64,000 bases of DNA from an uncultured delta proteobacterium (GTDB lineage Bacteria > Desulfobacterota > Syntrophia > Syntrophales > Smithellaceae): positions 323 through 64,322 of the forward strand of contig CAVSRI010000031.1 of assembly GCA_963730275.1 (NCBI GenBank), in the 5' to 3' direction. The notes beneath the pieces are model-generated. The model was given only the letters and a program-made list of their open reading frames with translations, did no database searches and had not been told where the DNA came from. Each line of letters begins with the position of its first letter. The first letter of the stretch is position 1. A program made the translations under genes and the position numbers. Below are positions 17,175 to 55,831 of the stretch, piece after piece.

Positions 17175-17272
17175 ATTTATCCAATAACCAACGGATTAAT
17201 AATAAGTCCTTAATTCGCATAAACTGGATTTTTTACAACGCCGTCCAATAATTATTTGAGGAGAATTCGTCA

Positions 17273-18148: not shown

Positions 18149-18176
18149 TATTTTTGCAGAAATTTACCGCGAATAA

Positions 18177-19619
<1,443 letters not shown>

Positions 19620-28706: not shown

Positions 28707-29761
28707 GCGTAACCTCCCTCACTTCTGCATTCGCGGGTATCGTTGTTGATGACACTTTTATGTGGCCTGTCTTCCATAGATTCTGTGGAGTCGGCATTTC
28801 TCATGGGTCCGCTCAAATGAATGATCTCGGTTTTGACCCCCGAATCCCGGGCCAGAGAAGCCAGGTTTCCAGCTTCTTCGGGGGAAATCAGACGGGTTTT
28901 TTTTAATGCCCAATCGATTCCCAAACTCTCGTATTTATGAATGCACAGGTTATTGAAGGTGCAAATCTCCCATCTGCCGACAATTTCTCCCAAGTGTTCC
29001 TTAATAAATACGCCGATGCCCTTGATGTTCTCTCGTGTGGCTGTGAAGTCCGGTATTAGAGGTGTACGTATCCAGAGCGCACCGGACAGTCCGCGCTCCT
29101 TCATGGAGCGACCAAGCCCGACAAGGTTTTCGAGTATTCTGGTATTGGAAACACCGGTGAATTTTTTATGTTTGTCCGGATCGATCTCCTTGAGATCATA
29201 CAGCACGAGATCTGTATATGGCAGGAGTGACTCCAGGGTCTCCCCTGAACATTGTCCGCAGGTATCCAGAGCTGTATGGATGCCGTTCTGTTGGAAAGCG
29301 GAAAGAAGCTCTTTGGTAAAAAGCGGCTGCATAGTTGGTTCGCCGCCCGATAATGTCACTCCGCCCCCTGACTTCTGGAAGTACACCTTGTCCTTCATAA
29401 CTTCACGCGCCAGATCATCGGGCTGGCAGTCTTCTCCGTAGGTATCCATGGCTGTTGATGGGCAGGCCGTAACACAAGCGGCGCAGGAATCGCACGTAAG
29501 TCTATCGATAACAATGCCGGCTTGTGCCATCGTCAGAGCCCCTTTCGAGCATGCCTCTATACAACTCCGGCAGCCAAGGCATCTGGTCTTTGCCCAATGC
29601 ACCTGCACTTGGGGTGAGATGCTTTCCGGATTATGGCACCAGACGCACGCAAGCGGACAACCTTTGAAAAAGATAGTACTCCTGATGCCCGGTCCGTCTT
29701 CGGTGGACATGCGCTGTATTCTCAGCATTGTTCCTGAAATGTTTTTTTCGGTTGCGCTCAT
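28703..29761 (-). CDS. Glycyl-radical enzyme activating protein (radical SAM with two ferredoxin-like clusters)
   Basis: GPGIRSTIFFKGCPLACVWCHNPES plus CLGCRSCIEAC and CDSCAACVTACP. Confidence 0.9.
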   Translation of the reverse strand: MSATEKNISGTMLRIQRMSTEDGPGIRSTIFFKGCPLACVWCHNPESISPQVQVHWAKTRCLGCRSCIEACSKGALTMAQAGIVIDRLTCDSCAACVTACPSTAMDTYGEDCQPDDLAREVMKDKVYFQKSGGGVTLSGGEPTMQPLFTKELLSAFQQNGIHTALDTCGQCSGETLESLLPYTDLVLYDLKEIDPDKHKKFTGVSNTRILENLVGLGRSMKERGLSGALWIRTPLIPDFTATRENIKGIGVFIKEHLGEIVGRWEICTFNNLCIHKYESLGIDWALKKTRLISPEEAGNLASLARDSGVKTEIIHLSGPMRNADSTESMEDRPHKSVINNDTRECRSEGGYA

Positions 29762-29770
29762 CGAACGACC

Positions 29771-32572: not shown

Positions 32573-33490
32573 ATGCTGAATTTTTTGCCGCCTCTGGTGC
32601 TGGGGATAGTTGCCTCGCTGCTTTTTGGTTTGAATGTTATGTTTTGGCCGATGCTCGTGTTTGGGTTTTCCATTTTGAAATTTCTCTTACCGTTTTCGCC
32701 CTTACGCCGTCTGCTTGACAGGATTTTACTGTGGCTCGCGGAAAACTGGATTTCGTGCAACAGCGGCTGGATGCGCCTGACCCAAAAGACTAAATGGGAT
32801 GTGCAGGGACTGGAAGGGTTGAATTATCACGGCTGGTATCTGGTCATCAGCAATCACCAGTCCTGGGTAGATATTTTTGTAATGCAGCATCTGTTGAACC
32901 GGCGCATTCCTTTGATGAAATTTTTTCTGAAACAAGAACTTATCTGGGTGCCGGTGATGGGCATTGCCTGGTGGGCGCTGGATTTTCCTTTCCTGCGCCG
33001 TCACGGTGTCGAATATTTAAAAAAGCATCCCGAACAAAAAGGCAAAGATTTCGCCACAATGCGTCTGGCTTGCGAGAAGTTTGCGCATGCCCCGACCAGC
33101 GTGATGAATTTTCTTGAAGGTACTCGTTTTTCTAAGGCAAAGCACACCCGGCAACAGTCACCATACAAACATCTTTTGCGCCCGAAAGCCGGCGGAATGG
33201 CGCTGGCTTTAGATGTGCTCGGTGAAAAGTTTCATTCCCTGTTAAATATTACGATAGTTTACCCCGACGGCATTCCGACATTCTGGATGTTTCTCTGCGG
33301 CAAGGTCAAGAAAGTAATTGTGCGCTTTCAAGCAATGGAAGTGCCCAAACAGCTTCTGCACGGCGATTATGCCGCCGATAATGATTTTCGTATTACATTT
33401 CACCGGTGGGTGCATCAGTTATGGCAAGAGAAAGATCAGCAGATCCAATTGCTGATGAAAGAAGTAATCGGCGCTCCAAGAATACCTTAA
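32573..33490 (+). CDS. Lysophospholipid acyltransferase family protein (YihG-like)
   Basis: HX4D motif NHQSWVD and EGTRF motif. Confidence 0.75.
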   Translation: MLNFLPPLVLGIVASLLFGLNVMFWPMLVFGFSILKFLLPFSPLRRLLDRILLWLAENWISCNSGWMRLTQKTKWDVQGLEGLNYHGWYLVISNHQSWVDIFVMQHLLNRRIPLMKFFLKQELIWVPVMGIAWWALDFPFLRRHGVEYLKKHPEQKGKDFATMRLACEKFAHAPTSVMNFLEGTRFSKAKHTRQQSPYKHLLRPKAGGMALALDVLGEKFHSLLNITIVYPDGIPTFWMFLCGKVKKVIVRFQAMEVPKQLLHGDYAADNDFRITFHRWVHQLWQEKDQQIQLLMKEVIGAPRIP

Positions 33491-35205
33491 TGATATTGTC
33501 CGGCTCTAGCTTCCACCCGGAGTGATTTTTTATCAATTTTCCCCACCATTGTCAAAGGCAGCTCTTTGCGGAATTCGATTATTTTAGGAACTTCATAAGG
33601 GGCAAGTTTTTCTATGGCCATTTTTATGATATCGGCCTTCAAGGCTTCTTCATTTTTTCCAAAATCGTATCCGGGAGTCTTAGTCAGGTAAGCCTTCACC
33701 AGCTCGGAACCGGGACGTTTGGGGTTGGGGATACCGATTGTGGCGGCGCTTTCTATCGCCGGGTGCTTTGTCAATACATCCTCCACTTTTTTGGAAAATA
33801 CCTTGAATCCGCTGATGATGATCATGTCCTTGGTGCGATCGACGAGACGCAAATAACCGTCTTCATCCTGGACGGCGATGTCTCCGGTATGTAGATAACC
33901 ATTATCGTCGATGATCTGCCTGGTCTCTTCGGGATTTTTATAATACCCGACCATCACTTGGGGCCCTTTAACACAAATCTCTCCGGGTTCGCCTTGCGCT
34001 ACCTTTTCACCGGTAATCGGATCCACCAAGATAATGTCTGTATTGATTATGGGCAGTCCGATAGTTCCCAGCTTCCGTAGTCCTTTCGACGGATTCATGG
34101 TGGTAATCGGCGAGGTTTCGGTCATCCCGTAAACTTCGAGCAACTTTCCTTTGCCGACGATGCTCTCCAGAATTTCCTGTGATTCTTCCGGGAAAGGCGC
34201 CGCGGAAGAGATGCAGGCCTGTAGCCGGGAATGATCGAGAGTCTTGAAGAGCGGATTGGCTATCAGCATCTGATAAAGAGAAGGCACGTTCACCAGATGG
34301 GTCGGTTTGTGTTTGCGAATTTCCTTGCAGATATGATTCGTGTCTCTGGGGTTGGGAATGAGAATTTGCGGCCATCCCAGATAGATGGCGTTGGCCGCGA
34401 AAAATGTGCCGGCAATGTGAAAGAAGGGAAATCCGGAAAGCGCTATCCCTTTGCCTTTTTCCCAGCCGAGCCACTTTTGCGCGATAAGCAAGTCGGCTAC
34501 GGAATTCCTATGGGAAATCATGGCGCCTTTGGGCATTCCCGTGGTACCGCCGGTATATTGAATATAGGCGATATCATCGGGAACCACTTTTACTTCCGGA
34601 GGTGCATCCGAGTATCTTTGGGGACAAATAGTCTCTTTAAAATGCAACACGTATTTGCCGGCAAGCGCTGTGACTTTGCCCCGCGGGATTTTTTTCAAAA
34701 GTTTTCCCAGGATGCGCTTGATGCGCGGCATGAATCCACCCACGTTGGCCGCGACCACGAGTTTTAGTTCATGAAGTTTGGAAGATATATGGATAAGCCT
34801 TCTGGCAAAGATAGCATCCAGAGTTACCAAGCCGCGGGCGTCGGAATCTTTGAGCTGATGTTCCATCTCCTCTGTGGATAGGAGAGGGGAAAGGCCGGAA
34901 GCCACGCAACCTGCTTTCAAAGTTCCCAGCCAGGCGATAATATATTCGGGAATATTCGGAAGATTTATTCCTACCACATCCCCTTTTTTGAAGCCGTGAG
35001 CAATCAGCATATTGGCAAAGCGGTTGGCATAACAATCCAGCTCGGCTAACTTTACTTTCATGCCCATAAAGCTAAAGGCTAACTGCTGGGGGAATTTTTC
35101 AAAAGTCTCCTTAATTGCGTCGACATAGCTTGTTTCCCACTCTTTCGGATCAAGGTCAGTAAGACCTGCGTCATAAGACAAGCGCCAGAACTGTTCATTT
35201 TTCAT
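33487..35205 (-). CDS. Long-chain fatty acid-CoA ligase (AMP-binding)
   Basis: YTGGTTGMPKGA and GYLHTGDIA..DEDGYLRLVDRTKD. RBS ggagtgg precedes ATG 35205; the ORF track start at 35283 is probably too early. Confidence 0.9.
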   Translation of the reverse strand: MKNEQFWRLSYDAGLTDLDPKEWETSYVDAIKETFEKFPQQLAFSFMGMKVKLAELDCYANRFANMLIAHGFKKGDVVGINLPNIPEYIIAWLGTLKAGCVASGLSPLLSTEEMEHQLKDSDARGLVTLDAIFARRLIHISSKLHELKLVVAANVGGFMPRIKRILGKLLKKIPRGKVTALAGKYVLHFKETICPQRYSDAPPEVKVVPDDIAYIQYTGGTTGMPKGAMISHRNSVADLLIAQKWLGWEKGKGIALSGFPFFHIAGTFFAANAIYLGWPQILIPNPRDTNHICKEIRKHKPTHLVNVPSLYQMLIANPLFKTLDHSRLQACISSAAPFPEESQEILESIVGKGKLLEVYGMTETSPITTMNPSKGLRKLGTIGLPIINTDIILVDPITGEKVAQGEPGEICVKGPQVMVGYYKNPEETRQIIDDNGYLHTGDIAVQDEDGYLRLVDRTKDMIIISGFKVFSKKVEDVLTKHPAIESAATIGIPNPKRPGSELVKAYLTKTPGYDFGKNEEALKADIIKMAIEKLAPYEVPKIIEFRKELPLTMVGKIDKKSLRVEARAGQYH

Positions 35206-35486
35206 TATTCCACTCCAATAATCAAAGATGTTAATGCTAATAGCGCACAGACTGTAGGATATTCGATACCGTATGATAAACAAATCTGCAATCTTTTTTC
35301 TTGCAGCAGCTTTCTGCTTTCATAATTATAAATTTACAGCGTATAGAAATGAATATTCCTATTTGCTGCCAAACAATACGTAATGGAATTTAAGGGGGAT
35401 ACCTTACTTAATTGTGTTCTTATGTCTGTTGGATATATATTAAAGGGGAAAGGAACTATTAACAAATTTTCCAGATAAATAAGAAA

Positions 35487-40288: not shown

Positions 40289-40636
40289 ATGCCACGACCT
40301 AAGTGCTGCCGTCATATTTGCGGCATTCCGGATAAAAACTATTTCAAGCCACGGGGAATACCCACAGTGGATCTCGAGGAGGTTCTTCTAGGCCTTGATG
40401 AATTTGAAGCAATTCGTCTAGCGGATTACGAACATTTATATCAGGAAGAGGCAGCAACCAGAATGAATGTTTCCCGCCAGACATTCGGCAGGATCATCGA
40501 AGCGGCGCACAAAAAGATTGCCGATGTGCTGATAAATGGCAAAGCGCTGAAAATTGAGGGCGGCGAAGTTGCTTTTGATGAAACAAAGCCGTGCGACCAC
40601 GGAAAAGGGCGCAGAGCAAAAAAAGATATTCAATAA
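40289..40636 (+). CDS. DUF134 (UPF0251) putative DNA-binding protein
   Basis: MPRPKCCRHICGIPDKNYFKPRGIP...LDEFEAIRLADYEHLYQEEAATRMNVSRQTFGRI. Confidence 0.8.
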   Translation: MPRPKCCRHICGIPDKNYFKPRGIPTVDLEEVLLGLDEFEAIRLADYEHLYQEEAATRMNVSRQTFGRIIEAAHKKIADVLINGKALKIEGGEVAFDETKPCDHGKGRRAKKDIQ

Positions 40637-40656
40637 TAATTATAAAGGAAAATTTT

Positions 40657-41019
40657 ATGAAAATCGCACTACCATCCCGTCAGAACCAGATTGACGAACA
40701 CTTCGGACACTGTGAACACTTTACGGTATTCACCATTGACGGCCAGAAAAAAATAACAGCGGAAGAAAAGATTGCTTCACCCGTTGGTTGTGGCTGCAAA
40801 TCTAATATAGCCCAGACACTTGCCGAAAAAGGCGTAAAACTCATGCTGGCTGGCAACATGGGACAAGGAGCCGTTACTGTATTAAACAGCCATGGCATTG
40901 ATGTTTTGCGCGGATGTTCAGGCGATGTGAAAGCCGTTGCTGAAAACTGGCTTTCAGGCAACCTGGAAGATTCGGGTATCGCCTGTGCTCAGCATCAACA
41001 CAATTGCCACGAACACTAA
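40657..41019 (+). CDS. NifB/NifX-family FeMo-cofactor-binding-domain protein
   Basis: MKIALPS...IDEHFGHCEHFTVFTI...GVKLMLAGNMGQGA. Start is taken at the internal Met. Confidence 0.8.
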   Translation: MKIALPSRQNQIDEHFGHCEHFTVFTIDGQKKITAEEKIASPVGCGCKSNIAQTLAEKGVKLMLAGNMGQGAVTVLNSHGIDVLRGCSGDVKAVAENWLSGNLEDSGIACAQHQHNCHEH

Positions 41020-41156: not shown

Positions 41157-41363
41157 TCACTTTGATTTGCCTATCGTGGAAATTTTGAAAGGGAGATACA
41201 GAGGGCAAAAACCGATCAAGCTCGTTATTATAAACACTAGCGCTAGGATGCCCAGGATGATCGCTGCAACGCCTGTAATGTTGCCGGTCAGATAGAGAAC
41301 TATAACAACAATGGCCAAAAGTATTCTAATAATTCTATCTATTGTTCCCATGTTCTTTTTCAT
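41157..41363 (-). CDS. DUF2892 (YgaP C-terminal-like) small membrane protein
   Basis: GTIDRIIRILLAIVVIVL...SLIGFCPLY. Confidence 0.7.
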   Translation of the reverse strand: MKKNMGTIDRIIRILLAIVVIVLYLTGNITGVAAIILGILALVFIITSLIGFCPLYLPFKISTIGKSK

Positions 41364-41575
41364 ATGTTTCTCCTTTTTTTAACCCGATAAATAAGAAAAA
41401 TAATCATAAACGACTTGCGGGACATTGCTTATATTTCAGTAAATACCTATCCGTTACAAGATTGCACAACTAAATGAACGGGTATTTTTTATCACTAATA
41501 CATCCTTCAGACAATATAATTCTGTTACCGAATTAACAAGCTGGTTCAACCAACTCGCATTATTTTACAAACTCC

Positions 41576-41618
41576 TTGACAGAGAGGATTAGTACGTTTA
41601 GTATACCCTAGGGGGTAT
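41576..41618 (+). promoter_or_regulatory. Sigma-70 promoter plus CsoR-family operator
   Basis: TTGACA (41576-41581), 17-nt spacer, TAGTAT (41599-41604). Palindrome ATACCC-TAG-GGGGTAT at 41603-41618 ends 2 nt before the regulator ATG. Confidence 0.65.
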
Positions 41619-41620
41619 AT

Positions 41621-41884
41621 ATGAATCCAGAAAGAAAAAAGGTTTCCAACCGCCTGCGGCGGATTGAGGGGCAAATTCGAGGACTTCAGCGTTTAATTGA
41701 GGAAGGAGCACCTTGCATTGATATTTTAACCCAGGTATCGGCGGTTACATCCGCCATTAAGAAAACTGGGGGCGCCATATTTTCCAATTACATGAAAACA
41801 TGTGTAGAGGAATCCGCAGGCAATCCGAATAAATTGCACGAAGATTTTCGTGCTGCATTATCCATGTTTATTGATTTATCTTGA
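41621..41884 (+). CDS. CsoR/RcnR-family (DUF156) metal- or persulfide-sensing repressor, CstR-like Cys/Cys fingerprint
   Basis: RLRRIEGQIRGLQRLIEEGAPCIDILTQ...NYMKTCVEE. There are two Cys, and Tyr rather than His sits four residues before the second Cys. Confidence 0.85.
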   Translation: MNPERKKVSNRLRRIEGQIRGLQRLIEEGAPCIDILTQVSAVTSAIKKTGGAIFSNYMKTCVEESAGNPNKLHEDFRAALSMFIDLS

Positions 41885-41949
41885 GCAGTTATTTCTTCAT
41901 AAAATTGCTTTATCATTTATCGTCTCGCTTATCGGCGAAAGGATAGAGT

Positions 41950-43149
41950 ATGGCAGGTTTCAGCGAAGCCCCGATGATTCTCAATATCAAATCTGCTTAT
42001 AAGCGTGTGGTATCCGGCGGCCGGGTATATCTGATCTTTGTTGGCTTATTTGGCCTTTTGATGCTGATCGGTATTGGGGCCGGATTTCACGCCTTATTCA
42101 TTGCCGGCTCGCGTCATGCCTACGGAACGTACCGCGAAGTTCCTGTGGCCATGCTCATTTCCACGTATGTCTATTTTGTTGTAGCATCCACAGGACTTTG
42201 TCTGGTTTCTTCGATAGGACATATTTTCGGCGTCCGTGATTTCATGCCCATTGCCAAGCGTTCCGTTTATTTGTCCATTATAACTATCCTGGCCGGTTTT
42301 CTAGTCATCGGGCTGGAAATCGAGCATCCCTTCCGCATGGTTCTATACAATATTATTTCGCCGAACTTGAGCTCCAATATCTGGTGGATGGGAACACTTT
42401 ATAGCTTTGCGTTGGTTTTTCTGACAATCGAATTCATTTTTCTTTTGAAGGAAGAAAAACACAAAAAAGCAGCAATTGCAGGTTTGTTGGGGGTAATCAC
42501 AGAAGTGGCGGCCAACACCAATCTGGGAGGCGTTTTTGCCATGATGCATAGCCGCTCTTACTGGTATGGCCCCTATTTACCCTTTTATTTCCTTTTGTCC
42601 GCCATGATCACAGGTTGCGCCTTTATCATATTTTTTTTCGTTCTGTCCCACTGGATCAACAGGAAAACCATCGATCAGCCAACCAAAAAGGCACTGGAGT
42701 CTGTGGGAAAGCTCGCCATCCTTCTACTCGTAATCATCATGATTTTTACTGTCTGGAAAATGCTGACAACATCTGTAGGCGGAGAATCGGCGATTGCAGC
42801 CATGAACGTATTTATCAGCGGTCCTTATATCTTCAGCTTCTGGGGGATTGAAGTGCTTGGGGGAATGATTATTCCGTTTGTCCTGCTCCTCATCTCTGGG
42901 GGGAAAAATATAATGATCATGTTTGTAGCCTCGGCCATCATGATTTTCTGCATTTTTTTCATGCGCCTGGATATGGTTGTCGTGGGACAAATTGTGCCTC
43001 TTTATTTCGAACTTGGTGTTAACGAATACTCTAAACTGCATACTTATACGCCCAGCGTTAGTGAAATCCTGGTGGTGCTGGGCAGTGTCGGCTTTTGCGC
43101 TTTGGCCTTTCTCCTGGGGGAGAAGATTTTTGACGGATTTAAAACATGA
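41950..43149 (+). CDS. NrfD/PsrC-family polytopic membrane quinone-interacting subunit
   Basis: 399-aa multi-TM protein. Position before an NrfC-like Fe-S gene, with an ATGA overlap at 43146. Confidence 0.8.
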   Translation: MAGFSEAPMILNIKSAYKRVVSGGRVYLIFVGLFGLLMLIGIGAGFHALFIAGSRHAYGTYREVPVAMLISTYVYFVVASTGLCLVSSIGHIFGVRDFMPIAKRSVYLSIITILAGFLVIGLEIEHPFRMVLYNIISPNLSSNIWWMGTLYSFALVFLTIEFIFLLKEEKHKKAAIAGLLGVITEVAANTNLGGVFAMMHSRSYWYGPYLPFYFLLSAMITGCAFIIFFFVLSHWINRKTIDQPTKKALESVGKLAILLLVIIMIFTVWKMLTTSVGGESAIAAMNVFISGPYIFSFWGIEVLGGMIIPFVLLLISGGKNIMIMFVASAIMIFCIFFMRLDMVVVGQIVPLYFELGVNEYSKLHTYTPSVSEILVVLGSVGFCALAFLLGEKIFDGFKT

Positions 43150-43158
43150 AAAAGTTTT

Positions 43159-43896
43159 TTGAACTTCAGGGAAAAAGAAAAAGAAACCCCGGAATATCCT
43201 CTCGATCAGGAACGTCGCGAGTTTCTGAAAATCGGTCTTACGATAACGGGCGTCCTTGCCGGCGGCACTGTTCTGTCTCTTATATCCAACGTGGGGAAAG
43301 CTTATTCTCTCGATGCTTACCGCAGAAAGTATCCCTATAAGCCGCATTACAGCATGGTAGTAAGGCAGGATCGTTGTATCGACTGCAAGCGTTGCATGGA
43401 GGCCTGTGTGGCCACCAACCGCGTGCCCAATTACGGATGGAGAACAATTATTTTAAAAAGGGAAGTTCCCGAATCTGTCGATCAAAAATGGGATTTCATA
43501 CCCATCCTTTGCAACCAGTGCAACGATCCTCCCTGTGTGCGGACTTGTCCAACACGGGCAACCTATAAAGATAAAACCAACGGCATCGTGATGATGGATA
43601 ACAAGAAATGTATAGGATGCAAGTCCTGCATGATGGCCTGTCCCTACGATGCTCGCTACTATAACGAAGCCAGGAAAGCGATTGATAAGTGCGATTTCTG
43701 TTTTGAAGCGCGGCTCTCGAAAGGCATAGAGAACGTGGCCTGTTCCCAGGCCTGCCCCGCCGATGTGCGGGTATTCGGCGATTTATCTGATCTCGAGAGC
43801 AGAGTCTATAAGCTCGTCCATCAATTACAAAAGCCGGTTTGGGTATTAAGAGAAGAAGTGGGCGCTAAACCAAATATTTTTTATATGAAAGGCTGA
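43159..43896 (+). CDS. NrfC/PsrB-like 4x[4Fe-4S] ferredoxin subunit with a Tat signal
   Basis: Twin-arginine motif QERREFLKIG. Cys clusters CIDCKRCMEAC, CNQCNDPPCVRTCP, CIGCKSCMMACP and CDFC...CSQACP. The real start may be ATG 43146 (coupled to the nrfD stop), with a 1-nt homopolymer error, for example at CCCC 43187-43190. Confidence 0.85.
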   Translation: MNFREKEKETPEYPLDQERREFLKIGLTITGVLAGGTVLSLISNVGKAYSLDAYRRKYPYKPHYSMVVRQDRCIDCKRCMEACVATNRVPNYGWRTIILKREVPESVDQKWDFIPILCNQCNDPPCVRTCPTRATYKDKTNGIVMMDNKKCIGCKSCMMACPYDARYYNEARKAIDKCDFCFEARLSKGIENVACSQACPADVRVFGDLSDLESRVYKLVHQLQKPVWVLREEVGAKPNIFYMKG

Positions 43897-43906
43897 GAAA
43901 GTTTCG

Positions 43907-44674
43907 ATGAAAAAAAGCCGCATGCTTTTAATGTTACTAGCATCTCTTTGCATCGCGAATATCTGCGCGGCTGCCGATAGTGATTTTTCCGACGGAGGAG
44001 GTATTCTTTACACCCAGCCGGTGCCGGCTGTTATCTTCCGGCATAAATATCACGTGGATGTCAAAAAGCTAAGCTGTGAAAAATGCCACAGCGGCCTTTT
44101 TGAGATGGAAGCACTAAATGCCCAGGAAAAAAATGATTTCACTATGAAGTCCCTGGACGAAGGAAAGTATTGCGGAGCCTGCCACAATGGGGAAGACGCT
44201 TTTGCTTCCGATACCCAGTGCGCCAGATGCCATGTCCGTCTGACCGATTGGGAAGATCAAGTGGGGCACGTCAAGGGAAAACCAGCGCCATATAAAATCC
44301 CCATTTACAATACATCTATAAATTATGGCAAAGGTGAAATGCAAGTCCGCTTTAACCACGAAAAACATTCAGCGCCTTTGAACTGCCGTGATTGCCATTT
44401 AAAGCTCTTTTCAATCAAGAAAGGGTCGAACAGTATGACACTTGCGGATCACAACCGGCAAAAATCCTGCTTTGGATGTCATGACGGGAAAGAGACCTTT
44501 TCCTGGTATAGCTGTAATAAATGCCACAAAAATTGGACAGAAATTGCCCAGGTAGGGCCTCTGAAATACAAAGCTGTTGCTAGTAAAGGCAGTTGTTATA
44601 AATGTCATACCAGCGACAGCGAAATGAAAGCACTAGTAAAAGCGCCGGTCATTCAAGGTGAGGGCGAGGGGTGA
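43907..44674 (+). CDS. Secreted heptahaem cytochrome c (two c7/c3-like trihaem units plus one), ends at TGA
   Basis: Signal peptide MKKSRMLLMLLASLCIANICAAA. Seven CxxCH motifs (CEKCH, CGACH, CARCH, CRDCH, CFGCH, CNKCH, CYKCH). Confidence 0.8.
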   Translation: MKKSRMLLMLLASLCIANICAAADSDFSDGGGILYTQPVPAVIFRHKYHVDVKKLSCEKCHSGLFEMEALNAQEKNDFTMKSLDEGKYCGACHNGEDAFASDTQCARCHVRLTDWEDQVGHVKGKPAPYKIPIYNTSINYGKGEMQVRFNHEKHSAPLNCRDCHLKLFSIKKGSNSMTLADHNRQKSCFGCHDGKETFSWYSCNKCHKNWTEIAQVGPLKYKAVASKGSCYKCHTSDSEMKALVKAPVIQGEGEG

Positions 44675-44722
44675 GCAGGAGCGCCTCCCCCAGTTAGGGC
44701 GGAAGAATATTACAAGGGTTAT

Positions 44723-45733
44723 ATGATAAATCAGGAGTCGATCAGCAAGGATTTTCACTTTGCCCTGGAATGCGTTTTTTGCCATAAAGGCGATGACAAA
44801 AAAGAAACGAAGGAGTCAGCGCACGCGGGATTAATTGCCAGGCCATCCGATGATTTTAAAATCTGCGGCATCTGTCACAAGAAAGTCGTGCTTAACTACA
44901 GCAAAGCCCTGCATTATACCAGCCTGGGACAGCGGGAAGGCGTCAAGCACAGGTTTTCCGCGGAAGAACTCAAAACTTTCGACAGCAAGGTTTTTGAACA
45001 ATCATGCCGGACCTGTCATGCCTCCTGCGGCGACTGTCATGTCAAATCTCCGCCTGTTGCCGGCATTACCACCGGCTTTTTGCAAGGCCATAAATTCGTC
45101 AATAAAAATGAAGGCAAAACCTGCGCCTCCTGTCACGGCGGGCGTGTTTATCCAGAATTTACCGGTGAATACGGAGGGACGCCCGATGTTCATTACCAGA
45201 AGGGCATGATGTGTGTGGATTGCCACAAAAAGCGTGAAATGCATGGAGACGGTATGATGTATAAATCCAAGCAGGAAGTCAAGGATCGTCCCCAGTGCTT
45301 ATCGTGCCACAAGAAAAGAAAATACGAGCGTTCCCATGAAACACACAAGGATACGGTTAGCTGTCAGGGTTGCCATTCTTCCGATCAATATCGCCAGTGC
45401 TATAATTGCCACACGGAGTCGGGATCAACGTCCAAGCCGGATTTCCTTTTGGGTTTAAACCCGCGGGATAAGAAGACATTAACAACGCTCAGGCTCATTC
45501 CTACTATAAAGACTACATTTAATAAGGCCGGAATCAAGATGAAGAACTTCGATGCCCTGCCCAACTACTGGGATTCGTCCGTGCACAACATCAAGAAACG
45601 GACGGAGCGGACTCGTTCCTGCGATTCCTGCCACGTAGCAAAAGAAGGGTTCCTTAAGCGCGAAATGCTTATTAAGGATGGTTCAAAAGCGAATGAAGAG
45701 TTAATCTACAACATTAAACCAATCAACAAGTAA
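44723..45733 (+). CDS. Decahaem cytochrome c ORF without a signal peptide, probably the continuation of 43907-44674
   Basis: Ten CxxCH motifs (CVFCH, CGICH, CRTCH, CGDCH, CASCH, CVDCH, CLSCH, CQGCH, CYNCH, CDSCH). No hydrophobic N-terminus and no convincing RBS. Same frame as the upstream ORF. Confidence 0.7.
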   Translation: MINQESISKDFHFALECVFCHKGDDKKETKESAHAGLIARPSDDFKICGICHKKVVLNYSKALHYTSLGQREGVKHRFSAEELKTFDSKVFEQSCRTCHASCGDCHVKSPPVAGITTGFLQGHKFVNKNEGKTCASCHGGRVYPEFTGEYGGTPDVHYQKGMMCVDCHKKREMHGDGMMYKSKQEVKDRPQCLSCHKKRKYERSHETHKDTVSCQGCHSSDQYRQCYNCHTESGSTSKPDFLLGLNPRDKKTLTTLRLIPTIKTTFNKAGIKMKNFDALPNYWDSSVHNIKKRTERTRSCDSCHVAKEGFLKREMLIKDGSKANEELIYNIKPINK

Positions 45734-45749
45734 CCAAAGGAGGGTATTT

Positions 45750-46643
45750 ATGAAAAAAGTGAAATGGTTGAAAGCAGTAGTGATTGTTATTGCGTTATTA
45801 CTGCCGCTGACGGCTATGGCCAGAGGCATTGATCCCATCGTATCCACGGACTGGCTCCAGAAAAATCTGAAAAACGCAAAAATAGTCATCGTGGATGTGC
45901 GCAAGGTGGAAGATTACCAGACAGGCCATATTCCGGGTGCTGTTAATGTATTTTACGGTTCCTGGGTAATCAAAAAGGGAGACTTGCTCAACGAACTGCC
46001 GCCGATTGATGACCTTGCTGACATTATCGGAGGCGCGGGAATTAACAAAAATTCTCTGGTGGTAATTGTCGGAAAAACAGAGAAAGTCCCTGATCAGTTC
46101 GACATGACTCGCGTTGCCTGGACATTGAAGGATGTAGGTGTCTCCAATGTTGCCATTCTCAACGGCGGATACACTCAATGGGCAAAGGAAAACAAACCCC
46201 TATCCCAGGATATCGTGAAGGCGAAGGCAAAACCATTCAAGGGTGCCGCCTATAAGAATCTATTCGTGGATAAAGCCTTTGTGCTGGACAAGATAGGTAA
46301 GACCACCATTATAGATGCCCGTGGTCCAGCTTTCTACGAGGGGAAAGAAAAACTTGCTTTCGTGCCCAAAACAGGGCGAATCAAGGGAGCTGTTAATCTT
46401 CCTGTAGGCCAATTGTATACACCGGAAGGTTTATACAAAGCTAAGTCGGAGCTTGCTGCACTTGCTGAAAAGGTGGCAGGGAAGGATCTGACCAAAGAGC
46501 TCATTCTTTATTGCGACACCGGCAAGACTGCCACAGCCTGGGCATTTATCATGACCGATATGCTCGGCTACAAAGATGTAAAGGTCTATGATGGCTCCTC
46601 CCAGGAGTGGTTGGCAGATCCCAATGCACCGACGGAACCATAA
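45750..46643 (+). CDS. Periplasmic tandem-rhodanese sulfurtransferase
   Basis: Signal peptide AVVIVIALLLPLTAMA. Two rhodanese domains. The C-terminal domain has the active-site loop YCDTGKTA; the N-terminal domain has no Cys. Confidence 0.85.
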   Translation: MKKVKWLKAVVIVIALLLPLTAMARGIDPIVSTDWLQKNLKNAKIVIVDVRKVEDYQTGHIPGAVNVFYGSWVIKKGDLLNELPPIDDLADIIGGAGINKNSLVVIVGKTEKVPDQFDMTRVAWTLKDVGVSNVAILNGGYTQWAKENKPLSQDIVKAKAKPFKGAAYKNLFVDKAFVLDKIGKTTIIDARGPAFYEGKEKLAFVPKTGRIKGAVNLPVGQLYTPEGLYKAKSELAALAEKVAGKDLTKELILYCDTGKTATAWAFIMTDMLGYKDVKVYDGSSQEWLADPNAPTEP

Positions 46644-46676
46644 CAAAAATAACAAAGAAGTTGTGTAAAAGAAAAA

Positions 46677-46710
46677 GCCCGGTGGTAAAATTATCGCCGG
46701 GCTTCTTTCT
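46677..46710 (+). terminator. Rho-independent terminator after the rhodanese gene
   Basis: gcccggtg / cgccgggc 8-bp stem followed by ttctttct. Confidence 0.65.
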
Positions 46711-47289: not shown

Positions 47290-47613
47290 CTATCTATTTT
47301 TGCCCGTCAAGTAATCAATCATCGGTTGTGTCACCAACGGCACAAGATCACCGATCATGTGCGGCATCAGGCTATCCATAACTTTAGGCATCAGTTCCGG
47401 CATCTGCTCACGCATGTAATCGGGCATGGCAATCTGCGCGGCAACTCTTTCGAGCATTGCCGGCATGACCTTGGGCATCATCATCGGCAGAAGTTTGGGG
47501 AACAAAACGGGAAACATGGGCTTCATCATATTGAGCGCTCCGGGAATCTTGCCCATTACCCGCATCATCGGCCCCATGCCGAAGGGCATGGCATCGATTA
47601 ATTGCGGCCACAT
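47290..47613 (-). CDS. Met/Pro-rich segment, probably the C-terminal tail of the upstream Fe-S protein
   Basis: I count 22 Met in 107 aa, with repeated MP..M / LMP.VM units. It joins ORF 47598-48875 if one A is added near 47615 (..ADLMGKMWPQLIDAMPFG..). Confidence 0.5.
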   Translation of the reverse strand: MWPQLIDAMPFGMGPMMRVMGKIPGALNMMKPMFPVLFPKLLPMMMPKVMPAMLERVAAQIAMPDYMREQMPELMPKVMDSLMPHMIGDLVPLVTQPMIDYLTGKNR

Positions 47614-48960
47614 CTTCCCATGAGATCGGCAAAACCCTGCGGTGTCATCAGCGAGATAAAAGCGTCAAAAACACCCCACTGGCTGTGCACATCCGGATTG
47701 GGATCGGGGAATTCATAGCCCAGAGCGTTTCCGGCCAGATGAGCCAAATCAATAACTTCCAACGGCAAATTTTTCTTTTTCGCGGTTATGCGTAATTGCA
47801 CCTGACAGCAGGGACATAGCGCCAGGACCTTCTCGGCTCCAATCTCAACTGCTTCATCAAGCCTTATTTTACCGATTTCCGCGGCGACAGGAGGATCTTT
47901 AATGAGAGTAAGAACACTGCCGCAGCAGTGGCCTTCCTCGCGGTTGTGCGCCATTTCCACAAATTGTACATTGGGAATCGCCTTGATCAGATCGCGGGGC
48001 GGTTCATAAACACCGGAAGCCCTGCCGATATGACAGGAGTCATGCCAGGTAACCTTTATCGGCTTTAGATTATTCGCCGGAAATTTGAATTCACCGGATT
48101 TGATTTTCTCGGCAATAACTTCCGAATAATGTTTGGTTTTGATATTGTATTCTATTCCTAATTTCTTGGCCCATTCGGGATAGACATTTCGCCACATCAT
48201 ATCGCAGGCTGGGCAGGAGGCAATCACGGTATCCGCACCGGTATGCTTTACAACGGCGATGTTCTTGCGCATGATATCCGCAAAAAGATCCCATTTACCA
48301 GCCACCAGCATCGGCGTCCCGCAGCAATTCTCCGGTTCACCGGCATAGGTAAAATCCACACCGGCCTTGTCAAGCAATCTCACGGTTGCCATGCCGATAT
48401 CATTTTCTACATAGCTTACCGTGCATCCGGCAAAATATACTGTCGGCGCTTTGCGACCGGGACCGTGTTTTTCCTTCAGATCTTGCGGAAACCAGTCGGC
48501 TCTGTTTTTGCGGTAACCGGCCCAAATGTTGCCCTCCGTTCGTAACGCTTCGGCCATCATTTCAAAAGGCGGGAATGTCATCCGTTTTTCCTGATTAATC
48601 AGCTTGCCGCGCAGTTTCATCCAGGAAGGTTCTATGGGCAGAGCCGCGGAACAGCGCAAATTACAAAGCTCGCAGGTCGTGCAGACTAAAAAAGTATCTA
48701 TCTGCGCCTGAGTCCACTTGGCCCTTCCTTCCAGATATTCCCTGAGCCAATACCACTTGCCGCGCGGAGCACTGGCTTTCCCAGCCGCGGCCGTAGAATT
48801 GATCACATTCCTCCACACAATAGCCGCATTGCGAACAGCTGTAGGCATACCAGACAACATCCGAAGGGATGTCACTTACGGGATAAGTTTTTCTCTCTCC
48901 GATATGCGTGATGACGTAATTACCGAAAGGCCGAATCAGTGGCTCAAAAGCGGAGCTGAT
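47598..48960 (-). CDS. (Fe-S)-binding / CCG-domain (GlcF/HdrD-like) part of a fused oxidoreductase, frame-broken
   Basis: My translation of 48790-48960 in another frame gives YSCSQCGYCVEECDQFYGRGWESQ (ferredoxin-like cluster). It then continues in ORF 47598-48875 with TCELCNLRC, ENCCGTP and GHCCGS (CCG motifs). Confidence 0.75.
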
Positions 48961-48962
48961 AC

Positions 48963-50361
48963 TCAGGCGCTGTCCATTAGACTGTAACCGATAACTTTCC
49001 CCGGATTGAAAATATCATTTTTATCCGTCTTTTTCTTAAAAGCTTTCAATCTGGCTACACGTTCGGCACCCAATACTTTTTCGGCTTTGGATTTGAAATA
49101 CAAGCCGGTAGAGTAGGCTCGGCCGCCGTTGGCTTCGGCAATTTTCATGATGGATAACGAAAGGCTGAACACAAAATTATAGCTGAATTTGCGCTGATCC
49201 GCGGGAATAAATCCCAGGATAACGACTTCCGGTTTTCCATCCTTGCCTTTGCGGATTACCGTCCCTTCCTTGACAATGGGTTGATTGATTTTATTTTCCA
49301 CTTCCGCCATGAAGCGGCCCAATCGGGAAAGCGGGATGACAACTTCGGCCGGTACCAAGACTGGGGCCAAGACGTTTGACCACCATAAGTTTGAAGCGGT
49401 TTTTCCATTCATGTTCGGCTATGCGCTCGCTTAATATTTCAGCCTGACAACGGCGTAAAATTTCTGGCAGCTTGCTCATCACCTGTGTTGCATCTTTTTT
49501 ATGAAAAGCTATCGTGGCCACATAGGAAGCAGGCAAAAGCACCCTTTCTTCCGCAGGATGACCGTTATGTTCCATCAAGGGCGAACGATTTTTCATTTCC
49601 GCCATTCTGGGGTTAATGAAAACCAAAGACCATAAAGGCAGATCAGCTTTCACTATATCTTCTACAATCTGTTTGAGTGCTTCAGCCTCCGGGCAACCAA
49701 TGGCAATAATTTCGAGTGCTTCTTTCGGTTGGACTTTCATGGTCAAATCGATAATAAAACCGGTTGTTCCTTCCGCGTCGGCAATTAAATCCAGATCAGC
49801 GTTGGTAAAAACACGCACCGAACCATCGGGCAGAGCTACACGGGCGGAAACTACATTTTCCCGAAACCAGCCGTATTGATAAGAACCAAAACCTGCTCCA
49901 CCCTGCGCCAGCCATCCGCCGACAGTAGAACCAGGATAGCTCGACGGATAAAGATTTACCGTAAGCCTCTCCTTGGCCAAAGCTGCATCAACTTTTTCCC
50001 AGACAACACCGGCCTGACAGGTTACTGTTTGCGCTTTTTTATCTATGGACAGAATTTTGTTCAGGCGGAAGAAATCAACAACTATACCTTGTTTGACAGG
50101 CAGAACCCCGCCATAACCGGAAGAAGCTTTTGCCCGTGGCGTGAGAGCGATCTTATTTTGCCTGGCCCAGTTAATGAGATTGACCAGTTCTTCTTCATTT
50201 TGGGGCTGAACAACCGCATCAGGAACGGTCTTGCCGATGAGCGGCGCAATGAGGGAAGGTATTGCCGCAATATCATGGCTGTATAATACGCGCTCCATTT
50301 CATTAAAATTGGCGCGATTGCCAAATTGCTTTTCCAGATATTCTTTCGTCTGCGTGTCCAT
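48963..50361 (-). CDS. FAD-binding (PCMH/GlcD-like) part of a fused oxidoreductase, frame-broken near 49345-49375
   Basis: ORF 49291-50361 gives the FAD-binding N-terminus (ALTPRAKASSGYGGVLP). ORF 48963-49412 gives the C-terminal cap (..GGRAYSTGLYF...DIFNPGKV). Confidence 0.8.
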
Positions 50362-54190: not shown

Positions 54191-55831
54191 TTACCACGGA
54201 TCAATAAAAGAGTGATCTGCCTCATGAGGTCGCTGAGCAGAAACAGAATTCAAACCTTGCATAATCCATTTGCGGGTATCGGCCGGATCAATGACCGCGT
54301 CGATTTCCAGGTAGGCGGCCATATTGATGGCTTTGCCTCTTTCATACAGTTGGGCAACCAGTTGCTCGTAGAGCGCTTCGCGCTCCTTCGGGTCTTTTAT
54401 TGCTTCAAGCTCTTTTTTAAAACCAGCCTTAACCGCGCCTTCCAACCCCATGCCTCCGAATTCCCCGGTCGGCCAGGCGGCGGTAAAAAAAGATTCATGA
54501 AAGCCGCCTTTGGCCATAGCCATTGCTCCGAGGCCGTAACCTCGGCGTAAAACAATCGTAAAGTAAGGCACGGTTAAATGCGCGCCTATGACAAACATCC
54601 GGCAGACATGGCGCACCTGCGCGCGCTTTTCGATTTCTGGCCCGACCATGAAGCCCGGAGTATCGCACAAAGAAAGAATCGGCAGATGATGCGCTTGGCA
54701 AATCTGCATCAGCCGCGCCACTTTGTCCGCACCTTCCGCTTCAATGGCTCCGGCCATGTGCATGCAGTTATTGGCGATAACGCCGAAAGGTCGGCCTTCG
54801 ATTCGGAGAAAGCCGGTAACCATGCTCGGGCCGAATTTCGGTCTCAGCTCCAGAAAGGAATCCGTATCGGCCAGTGCCTTAATGACTACGCGCACGTCAT
54901 AAGCGCGCCGCCTGTTTTCCGGAATCAAACGGCGTAGGTGCAGTTGATCGGCGGCCTCCCACTTGGAAATTGTTCCCTGAAAATAAGAAAGATATTTTTT
55001 GGTGACAGCCACCATTTCTACATCATCAGCCACTTCAATATCGACAACGCCGTTTTGCGTCTGCACATCAATCGGGCCGACCTCTTCCGGTTTGAAAACA
55101 CCAAGGCCGCCGCCTTCAATCATCACCGGGCCGCCCATACCGATATTGGAATTGCTGGTGGCGATAATCACATCGCAGCAGCCCAGGAGCGCCGCGTTCC
55201 CCGCGAAACATGGTCCCGATACCACGCCGACCACCGGCACCTTGCCGCTGAGCCGGGCGAAAGAGGCAAAGGTAGATAAATCCAGCCCTGCTACCATAAC
55301 GCCTCCGGCGTCAACGTCGCCTGGCCTGCCGCCACCACCTTCCGCGAACAAAACCAGAGGCAAGCTCTGTTCATGCGCGAGATTAAGCATTCGATCCATT
55401 TTTTTGTGATTGAAAAAGCCCTGTGTGCCGGCCAGAACGCTATAATCGTAAGCCATAACCATGCAGCGGGCTTTGTCCTCAGAAAATAGCGAGCCGTTGA
55501 CCGCTCCGATGCCCGCGATCAGGCCGTCGCCGGGAGTTTTGCTGATGAGATCATCTATTGAACGGCGACCGCGCTGCGCGGCGATGGTCAGAGCTCCGTA
55601 TTCGAGAAAACTGCCGTTATCGCAAAGATCCTCCACATTGGCGCGGGCCATGCGTTGATTTTTCTGCTTTCTTTTGGCCACTGCGTTGGGACGATTGGCA
55701 TCAAGGCCGAAAGAATGTCTTTTGATCACCTCGGCCAGGTCAGAGCGTACGGGATTGTTATCGGTTTCTTTGCTCAAGGGCGGGGTGGTTTTTCCTTTTT
55801 CCGTATCTTCTTTGTCTTTAGTTGTTTTCAT
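54191..55831 (-). CDS. Acyl-CoA carboxylase carboxyltransferase (beta) subunit
   Basis: Two crotonase-like CT domains (GGGRPGD..., PILSLCDTPGFMVG). Confidence 0.9.
   Translation of the reverse strand: MKTTKDKEDTEKGKTTPPLSKETDNNPVRSDLAEVIKRHSFGLDANRPNAVAKRKQKNQRMARANVEDLCDNGSFLEYGALTIAAQRGRRSIDDLISKTPGDGLIAGIGAVNGSLFSEDKARCMVMAYDYSVLAGTQGFFNHKKMDRMLNLAHEQSLPLVLFAEGGGGRPGDVDAGGVMVAGLDLSTFASFARLSGKVPVVGVVSGPCFAGNAALLGCCDVIIATSNSNIGMGGPVMIEGGGLGVFKPEEVGPIDVQTQNGVVDIEVADDVEMVAVTKKYLSYFQGTISKWEAADQLHLRRLIPENRRRAYDVRVVIKALADTDSFLELRPKFGPSMVTGFLRIEGRPFGVIANNCMHMAGAIEAEGADKVARLMQICQAHHLPILSLCDTPGFMVGPEIEKRAQVRHVCRMFVIGAHLTVPYFTIVLRRGYGLGAMAMAKGGFHESFFTAAWPTGEFGGMGLEGAVKAGFKKELEAIKDPKEREALYEQLVAQLYERGKAINMAAYLEIDAVIDPADTRKWIMQGLNSVSAQRPHEADHSFIDPW

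Follow-up and report, generated by a model that had tools for sequence, protein, structure and literature searches.

The best understood multihaem cytochrome that carries selenocysteine (Sec) comes from Geobacter. A 2026 review of selenoproteomes recognizes three Sec-containing cytochrome-related families, namely ExtKL, GSU2204 and Otr (PMC13188914), and among characterised multihaem selenoenzymes our literature search found one, the MccSep protein (ExtKL, GSU2937-2936) of Geobacter sulfurreducens, a pentahaem polysulfide reductase in which the Sec is essential (PMC13510729). In MccSep, Sec325 is situated in a C-terminal immunoglobulin (Ig)-like domain beside a His/Cys-ligated haem, and the enzyme is both induced by elemental sulfur (S0) and essential for S0 respiration; it reduces selenite less efficiently than polysulfide, and its authors relate the reaction to the reverse of those catalysed by TsdA and SoxAX (PMC13510729). 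The extHIJKLMNOPQS cluster further encodes the rhodanese-like ExtH, the 12- and 10-haem ExtM and ExtN, and a Rieske/cytochrome b module, and loss of ExtI impairs reduction of both selenite and tellurite (PMC5877670). Here we analyse a 64,000-nucleotide stretch of DNA (hereafter the window) from an uncultured delta proteobacterium of the Smithellaceae (Syntrophales), contig CAVSRI010000031.1, positions 323 to 64,322, in which positions 41,157 to 46,710 contain a CsoR-like regulator, an NrfCD-type membrane module, a multihaem cytochrome c and a periplasmic rhodanese. Comparative sequence evidence indicates that this cytochrome is a single selenoprotein, and that it belongs to a widespread family of Sec-containing multihaem cytochromes which is absent from the curated lists and papers that we searched. 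The features that bear on this point are as follows:

43907-45733, + strand: predicted single gene for a 17-haem cytochrome c selenoprotein of 608 residues (17 CxxCH motifs; read-through conservation)
44672-44674, + strand: UGA, the predicted codon for Sec256, in the context GEGEG-U-AGAPPPV (comparative evidence)
44686-44703, + strand: selenocysteine insertion sequence (SECIS)-like hairpin with a 6-bp stem, a bulged C and a 5-nt loop AGUUA, starting 11 nt past the UGA

The first-pass annotation of this DNA had spread the 17 CxxCH motifs over two open reading frames (ORFs) in the same frame. All 17 were recovered, 7 of them in the ORF 43907-44674 and 10 in 44723-45733, but the division into two ORFs does not hold if the intervening UGA is read as Sec. 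The stop that separates the ORFs is a TGA (44672-44674), with the ATG of the second ORF (44723) 16 codons downstream, and these 16 codons (AGAPPPVRAEEYYKGY) proved to be conserved coding sequence. The second ORF has neither a signal peptide nor a conserved start, and maturation of c-type cytochromes requires export. A search with the read-through protein recovered 619 relatives, of which the best 120 were nearly all C-terminal halves of about 346 amino acids, indicating that the split into two ORFs is a property of the family. We then scanned one genome per GTDB species, obtaining 379 relatives, and the labels of the best 80 of these 379 loci showed that nearly all are Syntrophales, Smithella, Syntrophaceae or generic Deltaproteobacteria metagenome-assembled genomes. 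The codon at the position of the stop was TGA in 81 of 82 homologous sequences and never TAA or TAG, the sole exception being the locus L079 with GCA. Translation of the homologous loci revealed a peptide conserved straight through the stop, with the pattern CxxCHT...KPP....GEG-*-AGAPPPV(R/K)AEE.YKGY. In most relatives the upstream ORF comprises a signal peptide and one haem motif only (about 55 amino acids), a stub that would be implausible as a protein on its own. Two remote members that were fetched independently, L083 and L084, have TGA at this position too, in the contexts GEG-TGA-GG and GKG-TGA-GG respectively.

The hairpin downstream of the UGA is the second line of evidence. A full 6-bp stem, in one of two registers, is formed in 66 of 68 distinct sequences, with its start 11 nt past the UGA, the consensus UCCGCC-loop-GGCGGA and an invariant G22-U23 in the loop. 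The bulged register displays compensatory changes at the pair 18-28, where 15 sequences have G-C, 14 have C-G and one has A-U, and in the other register the pair 19-28 changes from C-G to G-C and the pair 18-29 from G-C to U-A. Furthermore, 67 of 68 sequences have U as the four-fold degenerate third base of a proline codon within the stem, and at the glycine codon two codons upstream the four bases are evenly mixed; this constraint on the third base in the stem shows selection on the RNA and not on the protein alone. The remote members retain a comparable element with a different stem sequence, namely GCCUCC-GUUG-GAGGC at 11 nt past the TGA in L083, and GCGCC-GUU-GGCGC after the TGA in L084. 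The hairpin is also retained in L079, where the codon in question (1324-1326) is GCA. The window hairpin (-8.8 kcal/mol, z = -0.05) folds no more stably than shuffled sequence does; we therefore dropped stability as evidence, and the case for a SECIS element is a comparative rather than a thermodynamic one. An Rfam scan of 44600-44800 likewise detected no SECIS family and returned one chance viral match.

These last two results are what might be expected if the TGA were a genuine stop, be it one that separates two cytochrome genes, one that marks a pseudogene, or one that is leaky, with read-through by tRNA-Trp. Such an explanation could also draw on the unexceptional z-scores of the window hairpin (-0.05 and +0.66), on homologs with Trp (TGG) at the position, and on the Sec machinery not being visible within the 64-kb window. 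It leaves unaccounted for the exclusive use of TGA in 81 of 82 sequences with frame and peptide kept through the stop, the second ORF without signal peptide or conserved start behind a stub of about 55 amino acids in most relatives, the fixed 11-nt spacing, invariant GU, covariation and synonymous-site constraint of the hairpin, and the existence of homologs with Cys. We therefore regard a genuine stop or pseudogene as effectively excluded, and take the UGA at 44672-44674 to encode selenocysteine in one 17-haem protein, as is best supported by the comparative evidence.

Other residues replace Sec in part of the family. Cys is found at or beside the homologous linker position in at least 14 full-length remote cluster representatives among the best 150, for example in P0186 (GEG-C-GG), P0135 (SSS-C-GG) and P0190 (GGG-C-GG), and several of these have CC or CxxC. 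Sec/Cys pairs are a classical signature of the redox-active site of a selenoprotein. About 38 of the best 150 representatives begin immediately past the Sec position and are candidate Sec forms, and a few of the 150 carry Trp there. The close non-Sec relatives (P0010, P0015, P0016, P0017, P0036, P0084, P0096 and P0113) hold W, S, R, R, W, A, A or Y at this position and never Cys. Most of these substitutions are one nucleotide away from TGA, and they look like escapes from Sec decoding. Two points count against a catalytic selenocysteine in the window protein: these variants show that the fold can do without the redox residue, and no gene for the Sec machinery (selA, selB, selC/tRNA-Sec or selD) was found within the 64-kb window. 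On the other side, the order is Sec-rich, with 19 selenoproteins including SelD in Syntrophus aciditrophicus and no cytochrome among those listed (PMC1794560).

Other candidates for recoding were considered and set aside. Within 43147-43161, the TGA that ends nrfD is in frame with the TTG start of nrfC at 43159, 9 nt on, but we judged this to be coincidental, since NrfC needs its own N-terminal Tat signal. A second TGA-split cytochrome in related loci (about 620 and about 110 amino acids) was rejected because the small ORFs are out-of-frame artefacts. No convincing further selenoprotein gene was found in the window.

The window protein begins with a signal peptide, which is followed by two trihaem domains of the c7 type with haems 1-6, then by haem 7, the linker that contains Sec256 and a decahaem domain. 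The two c7-type trihaem domains span residues ~37-208 (TIGR04257, 137 bits; GSU1996 structure 3OV0, E 4.6e-48). An alignment of 81 sequences of the Sec domain revealed 11 CxxCH motifs, with haem 7 at C230 and the remaining ten from C289 to C572, and the Sec position is in a Gly/Pro-rich linker that follows this first haem. Beyond the haem motifs, nine non-motif histidines (H284, H306, H336, H395, H429, H446, H477, H480 and H560) and the residues M434, M545 and K241 are conserved, but no conserved Cys was found outside the CxxCH motifs in this alignment. Nine such histidines for 11 haems leave two haems without a conserved distal His, and Sec256 could lie near, or be a ligand of, one of these haems. 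A PDB sequence search recovered no solved relative of the Sec domain. Its C-terminal part weakly resembles the DmsE/MtrA-type decahaem cytochromes (39 bits to the DmsE-type model) and domains II/IV of MtrC.

The family to which this domain belongs is large. A decahaem profile run against 1.84 billion cluster representatives drew in 1151 matches at E <= 1e-3 and 134 at E <= 1e-30, the latter being clusters at 50% identity. The family is found in at least 379 species-level genomes. In public records the relatives appear as two ORFs labelled 'hypothetical' or 'cytochrome c3 family'. Neither the two halves nor the full-length protein matched the curated models of Sec-containing cytochromes, NF040886 (ExtKL), NF041027 (GSU2204) and TIGR04315 (Otr), at E <= 10. 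Our literature searches returned only MccSep/ExtKL and general selenoproteome lists, and we found no account of this Sec cytochrome family in the literature and curated lists, with a mention in sources outside the searchable library being possible.

We examined gene neighbourhoods by local tblastn and ORF clustering over 81 loci. The invariant core of these loci is the Sec cytochrome together with a tandem rhodanese: the two are paired in 69 of the 81, with the rhodanese usually starting 10-20 nt past the stop codon of the cytochrome. The first-pass annotation had made co-conservation of the gene cluster a condition of its interpretation, and this is borne out for the cytochrome and rhodanese but not for the remaining genes, with NrfCD in about 24 of the 81 loci, CsoR in 16 and DUF2892 in two close relatives. 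Three arrangements recur. In arrangement A, that of the window (L002-L016), the order is [csoR]-nrfD-nrfC-(7 haem::U::10 haem)-rhodanese. In arrangement B (about 8 loci) it is [flavocytochrome c + tetrahaem]-[csoR]-Sec undecahaem-rhodanese-...-nrfD-nrfC-cytochrome, the last of these being a separate gene for a protein of about 361 amino acids that is homologous to the N-terminal part of the window protein. In arrangement C (about 30 loci) the Sec undecahaem cytochrome and rhodanese are followed by an octahaem cytochrome (about 662 amino acids), a lipoprotein rhodanese, a membrane-anchored nonahaem cytochrome and ResB/CcsA. The separate NrfCD-linked homolog of the N-terminal part in about 8 loci makes the window protein a Rosetta-stone fusion: it joins an NrfCD-associated cytochrome to an 11-haem Sec cytochrome which most genomes encode as a protein of its own. 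The 'giant cytochrome' of the first-pass annotation is accordingly right in its 17 haems, but is a composite of two proteins.

Several further observations concern these neighbourhoods. The lipoprotein double rhodanese of arrangement C (L019, L022, L024, L025, L033-L036, L038 and others) is about 252 amino acids long with an active loop CESERC, and the nonahaem cytochrome (about 620 amino acids) has a C-terminal membrane anchor; the octahaem, lipoprotein rhodanese, nonahaem and ResB/CcsA proteins of this arrangement matched no named NCBIfam family. In 24 loci (L018, L023, L027, L028, L043, L052, L061, L062 and others) a flavocytochrome c subunit that binds flavin adenine dinucleotide (FAD) and a small tetrahaem cytochrome are present, often directly upstream of the Sec cytochrome, and this FAD subunit has a Tat signal (TIGR01813, E 5e-137).

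The rhodanese of the window has its catalytic Cys in the loop YCDTGKT of the C-terminal domain, the N-terminal domain being inactive. This Cys (YCD[TS]G[KRQ]) is kept in 81 of 84 aligned rhodanese homologs and is never replaced by Sec. The best solved relatives are the two-domain rhodaneses 1UAR, 3HWI and 1RHD, and the protein falls below the equivalog cut-offs for SseA and ExtH (68.5 bits against 200 for ExtH). The association with the cytochrome extends to natural fusions in P0163 and P0165 (= L084, 77-2047), in which a tandem rhodanese forms the C-terminal part; that of P0163 is 32% identical to the window rhodanese (E 1e-26), and P0165/L084 is a Sec (TGA) form with an adjoining NosL-like gene. 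Many module-linked rhodaneses were seen to have a second Cys five residues past the catalytic one (CDTGKTC), a subset having CD[IVA]GQCC, and the window copy has Ala there (CDTGKTA).

The architecture and neighbourhoods allow a reading in which the cytochrome is mainly an electron-transfer wire, whether periplasmic, extracellular or for direct interspecies transfer, with Sec as a structural residue or haem ligand and the rhodanese as an accessory. The N-terminal c7 'nanowire' trihaem domains (TIGR04257 and 3OV0, as above), the weak resemblance of the C-terminal part to DmsE/MtrA-type decahaems and MtrC, the additional large multihaem cytochromes in many loci, the shortfall of conserved histidines that would permit Sec as an axial ligand, and the variants without Sec or Cys all fit such a role. 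Yet the retention of the costly Sec and a conserved SECIS in at least 80 species argues for catalysis, as does the alternation of Sec and Cys that redox-active sites typically show; the window revealed no genes for outer-membrane porins; and a wire leaves unexplained the near-obligate pairing or fusion with a sulfurtransferase and the dithiol-type regulator (see below). We hold this to be the least likely of the functional alternatives considered here.

The remaining features of the locus are:

41157-41363, - strand: DUF2892/YgaP-like transmembrane protein of 68 amino acids, divergently oriented (PF11127, E 6.7e-22)
41576-41604, + strand: sigma-70-like promoter TTGACA-17 nt-TAGTAT, matching the consensus at 10 of 12 positions
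41603-41618: putative operator palindrome ATACCCTAGGGGGTAT (ATACCC-TAGG-GGGTAT), overlapping the -10 box and ending 2 nt 5' of the ATG
41621-41884, + strand: CsoR-family repressor of 87 amino acids (PF02583, E 5e-26)
41950-43149, + strand: NrfD/PsrC-family integral membrane subunit of 399 amino acids (PF03916, E 2.7e-19)
43159-43896, + strand: NrfC/PsrB-type periplasmic ferredoxin (Fer4_11, E 6e-24) with the twin-arginine translocation (Tat) motif RREFLK
45750-46643, + strand: periplasmic tandem-domain rhodanese of 297 amino acids with a signal peptide (PF00581, E 2e-35, in two stretches)
46675-46704, + strand: intrinsic-terminator-like hairpin with a 13-bp stem, including 7 G-C pairs, followed by CTTTCTATAT

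The ORF map, the Pfam and NCBIfam searches and the promoter and terminator scan recovered every feature that the first-pass annotation had listed, at the same positions, and the profile matches (PF11127, PF02583, PF03916, Fer4_11 and PF00581) agree with the families it had proposed. The intergenic gaps of 65, 9, 10 and 16 nt along the series csoR-like, nrfD, nrfC, cytochrome and rhodanese fit a single operon, and we conclude that the locus is one operon of these five genes. The hairpin at its end has a weak T-tract. NrfC, the cytochrome and the rhodanese carry Tat or Sec-pathway export signals. Neither the operon nor the large ORFs of the window include a molybdopterin catalytic subunit (PsrA, PhsA or TtrA), in agreement with the earlier description of a compact unit that lacks one; its suggestion of a cytochrome in place of PsrA survives to the extent that PsrA is absent, but the cytochrome is better cast as a putative Sec-dependent multihaem enzyme. 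Of the related loci, only L002 and L004, the two closest, have a homolog of the DUF2892 protein beside the module; we hence rejected it as a conserved core member and regard it as a weak member of the system.

NrfD has about 9-10 hydrophobic segments and is presumed to interact with quinol; it matches the HmcC model weakly (39.6 bits) and has no match in a PDB sequence search. NrfC has four Cys groups, each of the type that binds a [4Fe-4S] cluster, and it scores 165-174 bits against the TtrB, NrfC and DsrO models, all below the equivalog cut-offs (174 against 416 for TtrB; 165.5 against 200 for DsrO). Its best solved relative is PsrB of the Thermus polysulfide reductase (2VPW_B, E 1.6e-38).

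A scan of the window for consensus promoters found 11 where 12.1 were expected, so the count is not above chance, and support for the promoter and operator comes instead from conservation in 16 related loci. All 16 regulator-bearing loci possess cTTGACA, a spacer of 17-18 nt and the palindrome ATACC(C)-N3-5-GGGTAT, which ends just 5' of the ATG; the palindrome was found by a search pattern in 15 loci and by eye in L078. A GC-rich inverted repeat is typical of CsoR-family operators, and ATACCCTAGGGGGTAT occurs once in the window. The regulator itself is of the x-C-x-C type with Cys32 (X), Tyr57 (Y) and Cys61 (Z), where Tyr57 is opposite the Cu(I)-ligand His in alignments to the CsoR structures 4ADZ, 4M1P and 2HH7. 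Among the 16 module-linked homologs both Cys are always present, and the Y position is N in 11, Y in 4 and H in 1. Clusters of x-C-x-C CsoR-family proteins have been assigned as candidate persulfide sensors, and an Asn 'wedge' was noted in CstR (PMC8643695). The earlier description of a Cys/Cys regulator with no His is thus upheld, and its label 'CstR-like' applies at the level of the fingerprint only, the sequence score being higher against copper-sensing CsoR structures (54.7 bits) than against the entries 7MQ1-3 (40 bits). The Thermus CsoR-family protein TTHA1953 (6AHX, E 5e-13) is among the closest solved relatives, and it controls sulfur oxidation (PMC10318464).

Taking these observations together, we think it probable, with some reservation, that the system is a menaquinol-linked periplasmic reductase of polysulfide or sulfane sulfur, analogous and not homologous to MccSep. 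The sulfur role is suggested by PsrB as the closest solved relative of NrfC, by the weak homology to ExtH and ExtM, by the activity of MccSep as a polysulfide reductase and by the x-C-x-C regulators. The sequence comparisons show the recoding, the domain architecture, the export signals, the pairing with the rhodanese and the conserved operator, and what we infer is the substrate, the direction in which electrons move, the part played by Sec and the nature of the inducer. Under this proposal, NrfD would accept electrons from menaquinol and the Tat-exported four-cluster NrfC would hand them to the N-terminal c7-type hexahaem wire, from which they would continue via the 11-haem Sec domain. Sec256 would act as a nucleophile on a chalcogen-chalcogen bond, and the substrate, either polysulfide or the persulfide sulfur of a protein or low-molecular-weight compound, would be bound and presented by the rhodanese and reduced to sulfide. 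The repressor would sit on the palindrome over the promoter until reactive sulfur bridged its two Cys, and its release would switch the operon on when sulfane sulfur is available. The first-pass annotation had likewise coupled sulfane-sulfur turnover to the quinone pool; the analogy to MccSep (PMC13510729) and the relationship to PsrB favour this idea, with both the substrate and the direction being deduced. We more tentatively propose that the cytochromes could constitute a second, evolutionarily independent family of multihaem selenoenzymes, in which an 11-haem core with Sec, lacking a partner Cys, in a flexible EG-U-AG linker might cleave or gate S-S (or Se) bonds on rhodanese-delivered sulfur, and which might serve quinone-linked sulfur respiration or a reactive-sulfur sink in Syntrophales (Smithella, Syntrophus).

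The same parts would serve in the oxidative direction too, with sulfide, thiosulfate or persulfide being oxidised at the Sec/haem site and electrons flowing via NrfCD to menaquinone, in the manner of a haem-based analogue of TsdA/SoxAX or SQR. Thermodynamically, flow from sulfide to menaquinone is exergonic and the reverse is uphill. The relation drawn by the authors of MccSep to reverse TsdA/SoxAX reactions (PMC13510729) and the proximity of the window regulator to the sulfur-oxidation regulator TTHA1953 (6AHX, E 5e-13; PMC10318464) also point this way. Yet the hosts are strictly anaerobic syntrophs (Syntrophales/Smithella), whose need would be for electron sinks and not for low-potential donors, and the sole characterised Sec multihaem enzyme is a reductase, so that we consider an oxidative role quite unlikely.

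The weak homologies to the Ext proteins raise the further alternative of a reductase or detoxification system for selenite or tellurite, in which Sec would attack the chalcogen oxyanion and the rhodanese would handle selenium, for instance as perselenide. The only named NCBIfam relatives are indeed 'selenite/tellurite reduction operon' proteins, ExtH (68.5 bits) and ExtM (32-45 bits for the window cytochrome); MccSep reduces selenite as well, at lower efficiency than polysulfide (PMC13510729), and both oxyanions are affected by loss of ExtI (PMC5877670). But these scores are sub-threshold, lying far below the family cut-offs (200 and 800 bits), the dithiol fingerprint of the associated regulators is of the persulfide type, and MccSep prefers polysulfide. 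Selenite is, in addition, rare in methanogenic habitats. This alternative is unlikely, and we retain the reduction of polysulfide or sulfane sulfur as the favoured function.

Several considerations nevertheless weigh against this function. Polysulfide reduction by menaquinol is uphill under standard conditions, so the direction is not certain. Most members lack NrfCD and have other cytochromes instead. The regulator scores 54.7 bits against the copper-sensing CsoR structure of S. lividans and 40 bits against the entries 7MQ1-3, which we take to be a CstR. No sequence similarity between the Sec domain and MccSep could be detected, and the domain lacks a conserved Cys outside the haem motifs that would correspond to Cys239, a haem ligand in MccSep; the mechanistic analogy is therefore a loose one. 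An AlphaFold2 model of the natural Ser variant P0016 attained a mean predicted local distance difference test (pLDDT) score of 71.8, with the Sec linker below 50, so that the geometry between Sec and the haems is not readable from it; a Foldseek search of this model against the PDB gave no match at E <= 0.001 (best E 4.7), and haem-free models match poorly.

The genes that flank the operon are unrelated to it, encoding a SHOCT protein, a GlcD/CCG oxidase pair, FadL, an enoyl-CoA hydratase and a methyltransferase. The stretch 40289-41019 (+ strand), immediately upstream of the DUF2892 gene, encodes a DNA-binding-like protein of the DUF134 type and a protein with a NifX/NifB-type 'dinitrogenase FeMo-cofactor' domain, and such a pair is also found upstream of nrfD in L007. 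The gene for the GlcD-like FAD-binding oxidase (48963-50361, - strand) appears to be split, in that its two ORFs, 49291-50361 and 48963-49412, overlap and differ in frame, which may reflect a frameshift, decay to a pseudogene or an error of sequencing; it is followed by a CCG-domain (GlpC/HdrD-like) iron-sulfur protein gene (47598-48875, - strand). Elsewhere (28703-32288, - strand; 33487-35283; 54191-55831; 57313-58995), a glycyl-radical enzyme (PFL-like, 746 amino acids) adjoins a radical-SAM activase, and there are genes for two AMP-dependent ligases together with a carboxyltransferase, FadL and an enoyl-CoA hydratase. Taken together, these look like a neighbourhood for activation and degradation of hydrocarbons or fatty acids, which fits a Smithella/Syntrophaceae-type organism. 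The window also contains two separate ATP-synthase alpha-type genes and one beta gene (15660-19619, + strand; 62009-63577, - strand), and the duplicate alpha genes suggest two F-type ATPase operons.

The MccSep work of 2026 answered a question in sulfur respiration that had stood for about 50 years, and in the present family Sec has been recruited into a very different and much larger cytochrome scaffold. If the family does reduce sulfane sulfur, this chemistry of sulfur and selenium would extend to the syntrophs of methanogenic environments, and organisms regarded as 'obligate syntrophs' would gain a quinone-linked sulfur respiration or a reactive-sulfur sink, which would connect the selenium and sulfur cycles in a new way. 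Variants with Sec, Cys, Trp or other residues and the fusions to the rhodanese and to the NrfCD cytochrome would then amount to a natural experiment on cooperation between Sec and haem. Recognition of the family would also correct a systematic mis-annotation, as public annotations of the relatives miss the selenoprotein.

The locus shares features with several described systems. The window protein has in common with MccSep that it is a multihaem cytochrome c of the periplasm, that its gene contains an in-frame UGA/Sec with a SECIS inside the coding region, and that it is annotated as two ORFs; Sec alternates with Cys in both families. The operon resembles the Geobacter cluster in pairing such a protein with a rhodanese (ExtH in the latter) and a membrane quinol-oxidising module, further multihaem cytochromes being present in the Ext cluster. 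The differences are in the number of haems (11 in the minimal form or 17 in the window, as against 5 in MccSep), in the Sec site (the N-terminal Gly/Pro-rich linker EG-U-AG as against the loop D-G-U-P of an Ig-like domain at the C terminus), in the membrane module (NrfCD as against Rieske/cytochrome b), and in the hosts (Syntrophales as against Geobacter/Desulfuromonas). The PsrABC and Sud/Str systems of Wolinella and Thermus (2VPW) have in common with the window the NrfD-type anchor, the Tat-exported four-cluster NrfC/PsrB and an associated periplasmic sulfur carrier of the rhodanese type; they differ in that the Sec multihaem cytochrome stands in place of PsrA, and in that the rhodanese, which is of the TST/MST type, has two domains in tandem, in contrast to the single-domain Sud.

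The trio of NrfD, NrfC and a multihaem cytochrome c is likewise common to the Hmc, Nhc and Qrc complexes of sulfate reducers and the Cbc complexes of Geobacter, but the matches to HmcC (39.6 bits), HmcA, QrcA and QrcC are weak and far below the equivalog cut-offs, and we know of none of these complexes with a Sec cytochrome or an obligatory rhodanese partner. The c7 'nanowire' domains of the GSU1996 type (3OV0) are an N-terminal appendage on the Sec undecahaem cytochrome of the window, and elsewhere are found in a separate cytochrome after nrfDC. With CstR the regulator shares the x-C-x-C fingerprint of two Cys without a His ligand, a GC-rich palindromic operator over the promoter and sulfurtransferase neighbours; most module-linked homologs have the CstR-like Asn at the Y position where the window protein has Tyr, and the latter comes from a Desulfobacterota-type anaerobe, in contrast to the CstR clusters of S. 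aureus, E. faecalis and actinomycetes (PMC8643695). By analogy, the window system would work like both Ext/MccSep and Psr/Sud, but it is a member of neither.

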